Positions 10,076 through 14,040 of a stretch of DNA of 14,040 nt are shown in pieces. Position 1 is the stretch's first letter. Every line of letters begins with the position of its first letter. The notes under the pieces were generated by a model. It ran no database searches. It had not been told where the DNA came from and was given only the letters and a program-made list of their open reading frames with translations. The stretch comes from a virus (taxonomy: Duplodnaviria > Heunggongvirae > Uroviricota > Caudoviricetes), in IMG/VR virus record IMGVR_UViG_2681813230_000003; one strand, given 5' to 3'. The translations under genes were made by a program, and so were the position numbers.

Positions 10076-10378
10076 ATGGCTTATGGAATACAGACCTGGG
10101 ATGCTTCGGGAAACCCCAACAACTACGGAATCAAGCCCGTTTCCGTTGTTGGACGTATACAACTTGCCGCCGGACAAAACTCCGGCAGCTGGTCTTTCAC
10201 TGTACCCTCAGGAATGAAGGTCGGTTTTGCGCTCTCACTTGATGAAGGAGGTAACAGCGTAGGGAGGAGCATTGTCGCGTCAGGGAACACAATAACCGTA
10301 ACCGCAGCCTCTTCTGTGGGCCTGGGTAATTACCCGGCCTCTAAATGTGAGGTGGTCGTTTTCATGGAGAAAGCATAA
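10076..10378 (+). CDS. Hypothetical protein, J-distal; one copy of a WDASG-containing domain
   Basis: 100-aa ORF starting 2 nt after the J stop, with a G-rich SD-like stretch upstream. It shares a motif (G.xxxWDASG...SGSW) with the next ORF. No homologue recognised from memory. Confidence 0.55.
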   Translation: MAYGIQTWDASGNPNNYGIKPVSVVGRIQLAAGQNSGSWSFTVPSGMKVGFALSLDEGGNSVGRSIVASGNTITVTAASSVGLGNYPASKCEVVVFMEKA

Positions 10379-11052
10379 TGGCCGAATTTGGCGCGATGAT
10401 ATTAATGGATAACGGGAATCCCTTTGTAACGCCACAATCAACGCCTTTCTGTCTTTACGGGAAGTATACCTTCAATTCATCCGCGAATGGCAGTTCTCAG
10501 CAGGTTGCTCAAAATATCGCTTTAAACGCTGATTACCCAGTGATGGTTTTTATCAAAACCACCAATACAGCACAGCCCACTCCGGTTATGTCTTACAGGA
10601 ACGGCGGTAATGTGTATGTTGTTGGTGTTAATCCCTACAACCAAAGTTTCACTTTAACGGCGTACGTTTTTGCCATATTCCCGCAGATATTACCGAAATG
10701 GGGTTTGGCAATATGGGATGCGAGCGGAAAGCTTGTGTTAACTAATGAGTCCCGTGTGCTATCAGACCTGCAGACGGTTGGCACGCCTGGTGCAAACGGC
10801 GGGATAAATATTGACCAGACGCTGAGCGGGTCATGGGCCGTTGCACCTGCTCAGTTGGGTCAGACCATCATTGTGAATAATTCAACCCAGCCTCCGACTA
10901 TCTACACGATAAATGCTTATTCTTCATGCAGGTTTGACGGGGCCAATACGAGGATAAACGCAGGGGGGACCTCCACTGGGACAGGTTCACCTGTAGGGGG
11001 AACGAATACTGGCATTTCATTAACCGCCATAAATACAGCGGCCTATGATTGA
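10378..11052 (+). CDS. Hypothetical protein, J-distal; two copies of the same domain plus a Gly/Thr-rich C-terminus
   Basis: 224-aa ORF translationally coupled to the previous ORF (ATAATG overlap; GGAG 9 nt upstream). An internal GLAIWDASG...SGSW segment parallels the N-terminus of the upstream protein, and its own N-terminus has a GAMILMDNGNP variant. Lower GC than J. Confidence 0.55.
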   Translation: MAEFGAMILMDNGNPFVTPQSTPFCLYGKYTFNSSANGSSQQVAQNIALNADYPVMVFIKTTNTAQPTPVMSYRNGGNVYVVGVNPYNQSFTLTAYVFAIFPQILPKWGLAIWDASGKLVLTNESRVLSDLQTVGTPGANGGINIDQTLSGSWAVAPAQLGQTIIVNNSTQPPTIYTINAYSSCRFDGANTRINAGGTSTGTGSPVGGTNTGISLTAINTAAYD

Positions 11053-11089
11053 TTGATCGTTTTTAGCGATCAATAACATAATATTGATC
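11052..11089. repeat. AT-rich intergenic inverted/direct repeats carrying three GATC sites
   Basis: ATTGATCG (11052-11059) and CGATCAAT (11067-11074) form an 8-bp inverted repeat with a 7-nt spacer; a third ATTGATC lies at 11083-11089. GATC occurs at 11055, 11068 and 11086. Confidence 0.4.
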
Positions 11090-11163
11090 TATCCAATCAA
11101 TTATACCCACCAGAATTGTATTGGTATCGTCTAAGATACTGAATTCCTCTGGATACTATCAAA

Positions 11164-11397
11164 ATGAGAAAACTGATTATCTGCATGGCAGGCGCTGTCA
11201 TGCTTACAGGATGCGCTGGCGTAATTGAGAAACAGGAACCAGTTTGCAGCGGCACTGCAATCGTTGGCGGTCAGGAAACTACGGTTCAGATTTACGGTGT
11301 GCGTAAACAAAACAACCAGACGCAGTACCGGGCTGGATATCCTTTCAGCTGGCGCTGGGTAAGTGCGAATACATTTACCGAAACAACCTGCAAATAA
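11164..11397 (+). CDS. Small lipoprotein (moron); candidate superinfection-exclusion lipoprotein (Cor-like, speculative)
   Basis: 77-aa ORF with a lipoprotein signal peptide and lipobox (MRKLIICMAGAVMLTG|C). It is flanked by an AT-rich regulatory-looking region upstream and a hairpin plus T-run downstream, and sits between tail-tip and tail-fibre genes, where cor-type exclusion genes occur. The RBS is weak. Confidence 0.55.
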   Translation: MRKLIICMAGAVMLTGCAGVIEKQEPVCSGTAIVGGQETTVQIYGVRKQNNQTQYRAGYPFSWRWVSANTFTETTCK

Positions 11398-11418
11398 CCC
11401 ACTACGCTTAAACATAAA

Positions 11419-11440
11419 CCTCGCTCCGGCGGGGTTTTTT
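11419..11440 (+). terminator. Rho-independent terminator downstream of the lipoprotein gene
   Basis: CCTCGC-TCCG-GCGGGG stem-loop (6 bp including one G-U pair, 4-nt loop) followed by TTTTTT(A)TT, 22 nt after the stop codon. Confidence 0.6.
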
Positions 11441-11460
11441 ATTGCCCGAAAGGAGCGCAT

Positions 11461-12321
11461 ATGTCTGCAGGAACTATCACCCTGACAAACGGGTCCGCTG
11501 TTGTTGGCGGTGCCGGAACCTCATTCGCAACCGAACTCGCCGGAGGTGATTTCATTGTTTCGGCTGTGGGCGGTGTGCCCTACACGCTGCCGGTGAAAAC
11601 GGTCGACAGTAATACCCAGGTGACGCTGGTCAGCAACTTTACCGGGCCAACGCAATCCGGCGCTGCCTGGTCAGCCATCCCCCGCGTTGCTCTGAACATG
11701 GTCACTGCCGCGCTTGTGGCGCAAAGTGCTGAAGCCCTGCGTGGACTGAATTACGACAAACAGAACTGGCAGCAGGTTTACAGCGCCGCCGGAAACATCA
11801 CAGTGAAGTTGCCAGACGGCACCACCTTCACCGGCCCATCATGGAAATATCTGTCTGACAATATGGCAACCAAGAGCGGTGGGGCCGTACCTGTTAACCA
11901 GGGAGGGACCGGGGCGACAACCAGAGACGCCGCGCTGTCCAATCTGGGTATCACCTATGTCAGGTCAGGAACAAACTCCAGCGTGATAAAAATTGACGAT
12001 ATTTATCAAATGGATTTCCTCATAGGTGGCGGCATCGCAGTAGGAGCATACAACCCTCAGACAGTGGGAGGTATTACGTATTACACGCACTACTATAAAG
12101 TGCCGCTCCCCGTCGCATTACCTAACGGCATTATTATTGCCGTTGCGTCCATTTCAGGCGACAGATTTGGAAATCAAAACCCCGGATACAATGCAGACGT
12201 AAAAACATGCAGAGATAAAGATGATGGCACCGGGCTATCAACAACATATCTAACCGTCAGCGTTAAAACAGCTCAGACAGGCTGGGTCCCGTATTTTCAT
12301 GTAAGAGTGGTAGGGTATTGA
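11461..12321 (+). CDS. stf: Side tail fibre protein (Stf-like) with mosaic C-terminal receptor-binding region
   Basis: 286-aa ORF with AAGGAG 5 nt upstream. It contains a ...NQGGTGATTRDAALSNLGI motif of the kind I recall as conserved in phage tail fibres, and is followed directly by a Tfa-family chaperone gene. GC content drops sharply after about 12000. Confidence 0.65.
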   Translation: MSAGTITLTNGSAVVGGAGTSFATELAGGDFIVSAVGGVPYTLPVKTVDSNTQVTLVSNFTGPTQSGAAWSAIPRVALNMVTAALVAQSAEALRGLNYDKQNWQQVYSAAGNITVKLPDGTTFTGPSWKYLSDNMATKSGGAVPVNQGGTGATTRDAALSNLGITYVRSGTNSSVIKIDDIYQMDFLIGGGIAVGAYNPQTVGGITYYTHYYKVPLPVALPNGIIIAVASISGDRFGNQNPGYNADVKTCRDKDDGTGLSTTYLTVSVKTAQTGWVPYFHVRVVGY

Positions 12322-12322
12322 T

Positions 12323-12736
12323 ATGAAATATTTTTACAGCATCAGCACGCAGGGATTTTACCTCGATAACGGTATGCTGTCTGCGTATGAAGCGGCTGGC
12401 TCACTACCTGCGGACTTGCAAGAGATGAGCGAGGCTGACTATCTGGCGTTTTTTAATCCTCCCGATGGATTCGCGGGCATATTTGACGAGAAAGGACCGC
12501 GTATTGAACAACTGCCAGAACTGGACCCGCTGGCGATAGCAGAAAATCAACGGCGGCTGTTGCTGTCAGAAATCGCTCCGACTATTTCTGTATGGCAGAC
12601 AAAAATCCTGGTGGGCATGAAACTGAGTGATTCAGAAACCGCAGCCCTGCATGCCTGGTTGAGCTACAGTGATGCGCTGAACGCGCTGGATATCACCGTG
12701 CCAGATATTCAGTGGCCTGAAAAACCCGCAGCGTGA
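12323..12736 (+). CDS. tfa: Tail fibre assembly chaperone (Tfa family; lambda Tfa / Mu U-like)
   Basis: 137-aa ORF starting 2 nt after the stf stop. The C-terminus (LHAWLSYSDALNALDITVPDIQWPEKP) matches the conserved Tfa C-terminal signature (...W..Y...L..VD.S.APDIEWP..P in lambda Tfa). Confidence 0.8.
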   Translation: MKYFYSISTQGFYLDNGMLSAYEAAGSLPADLQEMSEADYLAFFNPPDGFAGIFDEKGPRIEQLPELDPLAIAENQRRLLLSEIAPTISVWQTKILVGMKLSDSETAALHAWLSYSDALNALDITVPDIQWPEKPAA

Positions 12737-13432: not shown

Positions 13433-13460
13433 CCATCAAAAATCTGGTGATGCTTCGCCG

Positions 13461-13487
13461 TTTCTCCTGTTTTCATAACAGGAGAAA
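13461..13487 (+). promoter_or_regulatory. Perfect 11-bp inverted repeat (stem-loop) that includes the invertase Shine-Dalgarno
   Basis: TTTCTCCTGTT (13461-13471), loop TTCAT, AACAGGAGAAA (13477-13487). The right arm contains AGGAG (13480-13484), 7 nt upstream of the invertase ATG at 13492. Confidence 0.45.
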
Positions 13488-13491
13488 TCCC

Positions 13492-14040
13492 ATGATTTAC
13501 GGTTATGCCCGAGTATCAACAAACCACCAGGACACTGAATTGCAACTAACGGCGCTCAAGTCAGCGGGTTGTGAGAAAATTTTTGAAGAGCATGCCAGCG
13601 GGAGGAAATCGAATCGGCCGGTTCTAAAACGGCTGATCGCCACTATGCAGCCGGGGGATGAACTGGTGGTCTGGAAGCTGGACAGGATAGGCCGCAACGT
13701 TCTGCATGCGCTGTTGATGTTCCAGCAGTTACAGGAAAAGGGTATCAACTTCCGCAGTATTACCGATGGCGTGGATCTCAAAACAGCCAGCGGCCGCTAT
13801 AACTTTCGTAACATCCTTTCCGCAGCACAATATGAATCTGATCTTAATAGCGAACGTACCTTAGCAGGGCTGGCCGTAGCCAGGGCAAAAGGGCGAGTTG
13901 GTGGTCGCAGGCCTAAGTTCACGGATGAGCAATGGCGGGAAATGGGGGAGCGGATGGCAACCGGTGAATCACGACAAAGCGTATCAAAAACGTATGGAGT
14001 AGGGCTCTCAACTCTGTATAAAAAGTTTCCAGCTAGCTGA
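13492..14040 (+). CDS. Serine-recombinase DNA invertase (Hin/Gin/Pin/Cin family)
   Basis: 182-aa product MIYGYARVSTNHQDTELQ...GDELVVWKLDRIGRN...GINFRSITD...ERTLAGLAVARAKGRVGGRRPK...GVGLSTLYKKFPAS is highly similar across its whole length to remembered Gin/Hin, including the catalytic Ser in the RVST motif and the C-terminal HTH. Start chosen at the ATG with an AGGAG SD; the ORF-track start at 13447 lacks one. The stop is the last codon of the window. Confidence 0.92.
   Translation: MIYGYARVSTNHQDTELQLTALKSAGCEKIFEEHASGRKSNRPVLKRLIATMQPGDELVVWKLDRIGRNVLHALLMFQQLQEKGINFRSITDGVDLKTASGRYNFRNILSAAQYESDLNSERTLAGLAVARAKGRVGGRRPKFTDEQWREMGERMATGESRQSVSKTYGVGLSTLYKKFPAS

Follow-up and report, generated by a model that had tools for sequence, protein, structure and literature searches.

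The DNA analysed here (the window, 14,040 nt) carries tail genes of a tailed phage in the order tape measure, minor tail genes, J, gp22, gp23, cor, side tail fibre and fibre assembly (Table 1). The order J-gp22-gp23-cor is also found in phi80, HK225, mEp390, Fostie and Midgardsormr38, and in phi80 and HK225 cor occupies the same position as here, between gp22/gp23 and the side tail fibre gene. A previous sequence-only reading of this DNA had located a small lipoprotein gene between the tail-tip and tail-fibre genes. This location was confirmed, with J, gp22 and gp23 before cor and the side tail fibre gene and the assembly gene after it. The intergenic region upstream of cor comprises 111 nt and is poor in G+C (31.5% compared with 53.4% for the whole window), and the gap downstream of cor is 63 nt long. 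Phage HK225 aligns with 97% of the window at 97.7% identity, and chromosomal prophages of E. coli ECCRA-119 and YZMc10-2 are 99.0% identical to it. Judged by these alignments, it is the tail region of a phi80/HK225-type lambdoid prophage. An ORF at 13447-14040 (+), which runs to the end of the window, matched serine recombinase / DNA invertase models below their cut-offs. Its counterpart in HK225, located 3' of the tail fibre genes, is annotated as a DNA invertase, and the ORF could belong to a tail-fibre inversion switch, either as a functional component or as a relic.

Table 1 Features of the cor locus and the neighbouring tail genes in the window
Feature	Position	Strand	Basis
Tail tip protein J, 1060 aa	6892..10074	+	Pfam FNIII-A_GpJ, Phage_Tail_Tip, Phage-tail_3
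gp22 homologue, 100 aa, first gene of the FhuA-linked gp22-gp23-cor cassette	10076..10378	+	PHROG 557; 94% to phi80 gp22
gp23 homologue, 224 aa, second gene of the cassette	10378..11052	+	PHROG 425; 93% to phi80 gp23
Nested palindromes of ATTGATC/GATCAAT words, three GATC sites	11044..11105	.	Palindrome search, fold, conservation
Putative cor promoter: -35 11100-11105 (ATTATA), extended -10 11122-11130 (TGGTATCGT), start ~11138	11100..11138	+	phi80 annotation mapped by alignment
cor CDS (phage exclusion lipoprotein Cor precursor)	11164..11397	+	ORF list and translation, phi80/HK225 identity, NF047972, PHROG 1119, pN/pS
Lipoprotein signal peptide, residues 1-16, MRKLIICMAGAVMLTG	11164..11211	+	Sequence; same 48-nt feature in phi80 record
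Lipobox L-T-G-C (L14-T15-G16-C17)	11203-11214	+	Read from sequence
Mature Cor, 61 aa from the lipidated Cys17 (predicted)	11212..11394	+	Predicted small beta-barrel-like domain
Rho-independent cor terminator, stem CCTCGC/GCGGGG, loop TCCG, T-run	11416..11443	+	Scan, fold, phi80/HK225 annotations
Side tail fibre	11461-12321	+	PHROG 28473 / PHROG 188 / Pfam Caudo_TAP matches in 11461..12736; HK225 annotation
Tail fibre assembly protein	12323-12736	+	PHROG 28473 / PHROG 188 / Pfam Caudo_TAP matches in 11461..12736; HK225 annotation

The cor ORF starts with ATG and encodes 77 amino acids followed by a stop codon (product MRKLIICMAGAVMLTGCAGVIEKQEPVCSGTAIVGGQETTVQIYGVRKQNNQTQYRAGYPFSWRWVSANTFTETTCK). 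The ORF of this length with the lipobox LTGC, processed before the cysteine, had already been recognized in the sequence-only reading and was borne out. The N-terminal part, MRKLIICMAGAVMLTG followed by Cys, consists of two basic residues, a hydrophobic core and the lipobox, and the phi80 record contains the same 16-aa signal peptide, annotated as cleaved by signal peptidase II. According to the Lol sorting rule, lipoproteins without Asp at position +2 are transferred to the outer membrane. The residue +2 of mature Cor is Ala, so that sorting to the outer membrane is predicted from this rule; similarly, lipidation and cleavage by signal peptidase II would be expected from the lipobox. Two details of the earlier description have to be corrected. 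Only two cysteines (Cys28 and Cys76), not three, follow the lipid-modified one, because of the four cysteines in the precursor (7, 17, 28 and 76) Cys7 sits in the signal peptide. The protein can also hardly be called Trp-rich, as there are only two tryptophans (63 and 65) among the 61 mature residues (3.3%). Cys28 and Cys76 are a conserved pair and are probably joined by a disulfide bond.

No obvious Shine-Dalgarno sequence precedes cor, the nearest GGA lying 11-13 nt 5' of the ATG. In three of the four lambdoid cor loci compared with the window, the 24 nt before the start codon (11140-11163; CTGAAT.CCTCTGGATACTATCAAA) are nearly the same as here; Fostie is more diverged in this stretch. A leader of such constancy which has no clear Shine-Dalgarno sequence hints at translational or RNA-level control.

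All 77 residues of the protein are identical to those of phi80 Cor, and the coding DNA is 100% identical to phi80 as well. HK225 Cor is also identical (77/77), and tblastn found 100% identity for mEp043 and mEp213. The signal peptide, lipobox and terminator of phi80 cor are likewise the same as in the window. The megablast search with the region retrieved lambdoid phages, in whose records the gene is called Cor. The comparison with Cor family models proposed in the sequence-only reading gave an unequivocal result. The score against the NCBIfam equivalog NF047972 (lamb_exclu_cor, "phage exclusion lipoprotein Cor") was 140.9 bits at a cut-off of 31 bits, with residues 1-76 aligned to the first 76 of the 78 model positions, and PHROG 1119 ("Cor superinfection exclusion protein") was matched with E=7.1e-37 over residues 1-77. 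The assignment to Cor, which had been made by position and type only, can now be replaced by confirmed homology, and by these matches the ORF is the cor gene, a real gene already known under that name in public records.

The family defined by NF047972 and PHROG 1119, to which phi80 Cor belongs, takes in the Cor proteins of N15, HK022, mEp167 and T1. More remote homologues were HK022 Cor (79% identity), proteins of Erwinia and Aeromonas phages (57-61%) and T1 Cor (37%). The top matches in BFVD were a superinfection exclusion protein of a T1-like phage and small proteins or lipoproteins of other coliphages. In the alignment of 41 homologues, Cys76, Pro26, Ile43, Tyr44, Gly58, Pro60 and Phe61 are invariant and Gly16, Cys17, Cys28, Trp63 and Trp65 are conserved in at least 90% of the sequences; the aromatic core motif of Cor, IYG...RAGYPF.W.W, is present together with the conserved Cys pair. 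The cor allele with its terminator was found at an identity of at least 99% in 43 of 5,426 complete E. coli genomes, always in the chromosome, and is annotated as "phage exclusion lipoprotein Cor" in the entries listed. Neither Pfam nor PADLOC has a family for Cor, gp22 or gp23, and the absence of matches in these two collections is therefore uninformative. The match of Cor to the NCBIfam TraV model (20.7 bits, cut-off 44.75) was rejected as similarity between lipoprotein signal peptides.

Two sources report that Cor of phi80, N15 and HK022 inactivates FhuA (PMC3594210, PMC11436027, citing Uc-Mass et al. 2004), and they report FhuA inactivation for mEp167 Cor as well. According to the first of these, lysogens with Cor of phi80, N15 or HK022 are protected against FhuA-requiring phages and against colicin M and take up less ferrichrome (PMC3594210). 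FhuA inactivation is carried over to the Cor of the window solely because its sequence is identical to that of phi80 Cor, and through this identity both the nature of the protein and its phenotype can be regarded as secure. The Cor-type, receptor-blocking exclusion lipoprotein suggested by the sequence-only reading is thus supported by the complete identity to phi80 Cor, by the two family models and by the literature on FhuA.

The pathway we propose begins with the export of the 77-aa precursor, which would receive its lipid on Cys17 and be processed by signal peptidase II. The Lol pathway would then deliver Cor, with Ala at +2, to the periplasmic leaflet of the outer membrane, where the 61-aa β-rich protein, probably held by the Cys28-Cys76 disulfide, would inactivate FhuA, the TonB-dependent transporter of ferrichrome. 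FhuA-dependent phages (phi80, T1, T5, N15, HK022 and the phage of the window itself) would no longer be adsorbed by lysogens or by cells late in infection, less ferrichrome uptake being the cost and colicin M resistance a side benefit. As a whole, the assignment of this gene as cor of a phi80/HK225-type lambdoid prophage, with the pathway leading from lipidation through the outer membrane to the inactivation of FhuA, is in our view highly probable. The present analysis shows what the gene is, how it is built, that it is conserved and that its predicted fold resembles Llp, and FhuA inactivation comes from published work on the identical protein; we infer the lipid processing, the sorting to the outer membrane, the disulfide, a direct contact with FhuA and the allosteric closure of its loops.

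The terminator downstream of cor (extended stem 11416-11437, T-run 11435-11440/43) was found by the terminator scan and folds as RNA with -15.2 kcal/mol (z = -2.15). A hairpin 3' of cor is present with changed stems in HK022, mEp390, Fostie and the Erwinia phage Midgardsormr38; a T.G pair is replaced by T-A in Fostie and the G+C stem is wholly different in Midgardsormr38, while TTTTTTATTGCC always follows. The maintenance of the hairpin despite the changes in its stem argues for a structurally conserved terminator. On the upstream side, the extended -10 element TGGTATCGT of the promoter annotated in phi80 is conserved in five lambdoid cor loci, and the scan with the σ70 consensus found seven sites, which is not above chance level (5.4 expected). 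A putative regulatory region of its own upstream of cor is plausible. The autonomous unit claimed in the sequence-only reading was thus upheld with respect to the terminator, whereas the computation did not bear out the separate regulatory region.

The comparison with phi80 also delimits the unit. Between 11146 and 11446 the only departure from phi80 is a T-run that differs by 1 nt in length, whereas the promoter-proximal region 11053-11145 is only 82% identical; gp22, gp23 and this spacer range from 82 to 89% identity and the last 274 nt of J reach 80%. Immediately after 11446 the similarity to phi80 stops abruptly and the following sequence is unrelated, a different tail fibre gene of the HK225/N15 type being located downstream of the terminator. 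From these alignments, cor and its terminator clearly appear as a mosaic cassette with sharp boundaries, as would be expected for a lambdoid moron.

It could be that cor serves chiefly in the lytic cycle and not in lysogenic conversion; it would then be transcribed by read-through within the late tail operon and the protein would spare the progeny from being captured by FhuA in the debris of lysed cells. Protection from debris was proposed for the exclusion proteins of lytic phages, T1-like KanT1 and T5 among them, and protection of progeny from the remnants of lysed cells is mentioned in PMC13164509. Consistent with this role, cor is co-oriented with the genes of the late tail block, there is no canonical terminator between gp23 and cor, and the strictly lytic phages T1 and T5 carry cor or llp. 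On the other hand, the phi80 record annotates a separate promoter and designates the product as a lysogenic conversion lipoprotein. In T1 (1501-2744), cor lies beside the gp23 and gp22 homologues but on the opposite strand, in a convergent arrangement with a terminator in between. As judged from this comparison of T1 with lambdoid phages, the linkage of cor to gp22/gp23 is kept and its orientation is not. The T1 gene therefore forms a separate transcription unit, which indicates that cor can be transcribed on its own. A mainly lytic function seems to us possible though somewhat unlikely, and the lytic and lysogenic-conversion roles of cor can coexist.

The region between gp23 and cor contains a further element of potential regulatory significance. 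The 62-bp palindromic element 11044-11105 extends from inside the stop codon of gp23 to the annotated -35 hexamer of cor, and its three GATC sites within 31 bp form the tightest cluster among the 52 such sites of the 14-kb window. Phi80, mEp390 and Fostie have conserved the palindrome sequence and HK022 has done so in part, and Midgardsormr38 carries another GATC palindrome at this position. Folded as a single RNA sequence, the element gave -18.5 kcal/mol (z = -4.92). Despite this strong fold, the RNA-structure reading was not supported, as no compensatory changes in the palindromes were found across five related sequences. Conservation without compensatory changes points to a site acting at the DNA level, or else the divergence is too small to tell. 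A Fur box upstream of cor, which would provide co-regulation with fhuA, was rejected since the best candidate matched 11 of 19 positions compared with 13 of 19 elsewhere in the window. The element overlaps the -35 region that is annotated for cor in phi80. That it constitutes an undescribed regulatory switch of cor, such as an operator of a host or phage regulator or a site sensitive to Dam methylation, is a speculative proposal, and we consider it distinctly unlikely.

How Cor acts on FhuA can be approached through Llp of phage T5. The best structural match of the predicted Cor model was Llp in its FhuA-bound form (PDB 8a60 chain B), with 13% identity in the structural alignment. In the Foldseek search of the PDB with the Cor model, Llp was absent from the top 50 matches; all that appeared there were small barrels of the Tudor, chromo and SH3-like types at E>=0.07. 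Neither phmmer with Cor nor hmmsearch with the 41-sequence Cor profile detected an Llp chain at E<=10 in the PDB, which includes both the FhuA-bound (8a60_B) and the free (7qjf_A) Llp, and the matches that these sequence and profile searches did produce were dismissed as chance, with E above 0.5. The likeness to Llp noticed in the sequence-only reading therefore holds at the level of the fold and not at that of sequence searches. Support for a fold shared by Cor and T5 Llp is moderate and comes from the predicted model.

In the published structure of the complex, Llp binds FhuA from the periplasmic side and the extracellular loops 7 and 8 fold inward; the same study found Llp to be ~20% identical to Cor, including the disulfide, and stated that Cor "likely functions in a similar way" (PMC9586334). 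FhuA binding has been solved structurally for Llp, whereas for Cor there are published predictions only. The two proteins also differ in their phages: T5, the source of Llp, is lytic and makes this protein early after infection, whereas the Cor described here comes from a temperate phage. By analogy with Llp, Cor located on the periplasmic face of FhuA would cause the extracellular loops to fold inward allosterically, including L8, on which phi80 depends (PMC10373560). We consider such an allosteric closure of FhuA of the Llp type to be the most likely molecular mechanism of Cor, and the Llp-like fold match adds modest support to the idea that Cor and Llp share one mechanism.

A different mechanism is suggested by a report on mEp167 Cor. 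[quoted passage not shown] Cor might accordingly need these proteins or act through them, and alter the function or accessibility of FhuA indirectly, with no direct plugging or allosteric closure. A 2026 preprint on Llp describes how Cor works as "not yet elucidated" (bioRxiv 10.64898/2026.03.26.714494), which leaves room for such an explanation. It is opposed by the structural match of the Cor model to Llp in the FhuA-bound form and by the AlphaFold3 model of T1-like KanT1 Cor, which docks to the periplasmic side of FhuA with an ipTM of 0.84 (PMC13164509). We judge a purely indirect action to be unlikely, and the indirect action through porins and the direct closure of FhuA are not mutually exclusive. 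In view of the report on mEp167 Cor and porins, an indirect or co-factor-dependent mechanism is conceivable, and the action of Cor on FhuA may not be a simple one-to-one binding.

The genes preceding cor are informative about the receptor. The gp22-gp23-cor cassette is common to T1, HK022, N15, ES18 and phi80, all of which are FhuA-dependent (PMC13164509). The BASEL study concluded that the genes downstream of gpJ are the likely receptor-binding locus and that they are encoded together with a cognate exclusion protein (PMC8594841). In view of published work which treats these genes as a probable FhuA-specific receptor-binding locus, the labels attached to the two genes look doubtful, and according to this published reading cor adjoins probable genes of receptor recognition. 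There is a parallel in T5, where llp adjoins pb5 (PMC9586334), as cor adjoins gp22/gp23 here. The N-termini of the gp22 and gp23 proteins (MAYGIQTWDASG..., MAEFGAMILMDNGNPF...) contain no signal peptide, and neither protein matches a Pfam, NCBIfam or PADLOC family; the gp23 homologue is a candidate receptor-binding component. The tail tip protein J of the window is 48% identical to phi80 J overall and ~92% identical over the last 73 residues, and it is without ~130 residues of a coiled region which is present in phi80 J. A mosaic J which has kept its C-terminal end fits the idea, drawn from the alignment, of a conserved docking end for a shared gp22/gp23 module.

The Cor of the window could in principle be directed at a TonB-dependent transporter other than FhuA, for instance BtuB, as suggested for some T1-like phages. 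Cor-like proteins are indeed encoded by BtuB-using phages (PMC13164509), and J is only 48% identical to its phi80 counterpart overall. However, Cor is fully identical to that of phi80, gp22 and gp23 are 94 and 93% identical and the last 73 residues of J ~92%, and phi80 is FhuA-dependent (PMC10373560). A target other than FhuA is very improbable on these grounds, and the phage of the window is almost certainly FhuA-dependent too.

The frame of cor is under purifying selection. In comparison with HK022, mEp390 and Fostie, there are 29-40 synonymous and 15-27 non-synonymous differences, which correspond to pN/pS of 0.14-0.20. The possibility that the real gene is an antisense ORF of 109 aa (11131-11460, -), longer than cor and fully overlapping it, and that the lipoprotein-like frame is coincidental, is scarcely credible, because an uninterrupted antisense frame occurs only in the window and the identical phi80 sequence and one to four stop codons break it up in HK022, mEp390, Fostie and Midgardsormr38, whereas selection acts on the plus-strand frame and this frame matches the curated Cor models (NF047972, PHROG 1119).

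The cor gene can be compared with other exclusion or outer-membrane morons in the tail region of lambdoid phages. The product of lambda lom is an outer-membrane β-barrel protein, not a lipoprotein. Like cor, lambda lom is a small accessory gene with its own terminator among the late genes and alters the surface or the entry properties of the lysogen. The same is true of HK97 gp15 (PMC3594210). HK97 gp15 is described as unrelated to Cor and blocks infection without affecting the host functions of the phages' outer-membrane transporters (PMC3594210).

The gene described here is a textbook lysogenic-conversion gene whose identical sequence is already public under the name Cor, and in annotation its presence assigns the window to the tail region of a lambdoid prophage of the phi80/HK225 type. 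If the palindromic element upstream of cor were indeed a switch, it would tune the level of Cor in the lysogen and thus determine how phage resistance is balanced against ferrichrome uptake. The host strain is predicted to be resistant to T1, T5, phi80-like phages and colicin M and to take up ferrichrome more poorly.
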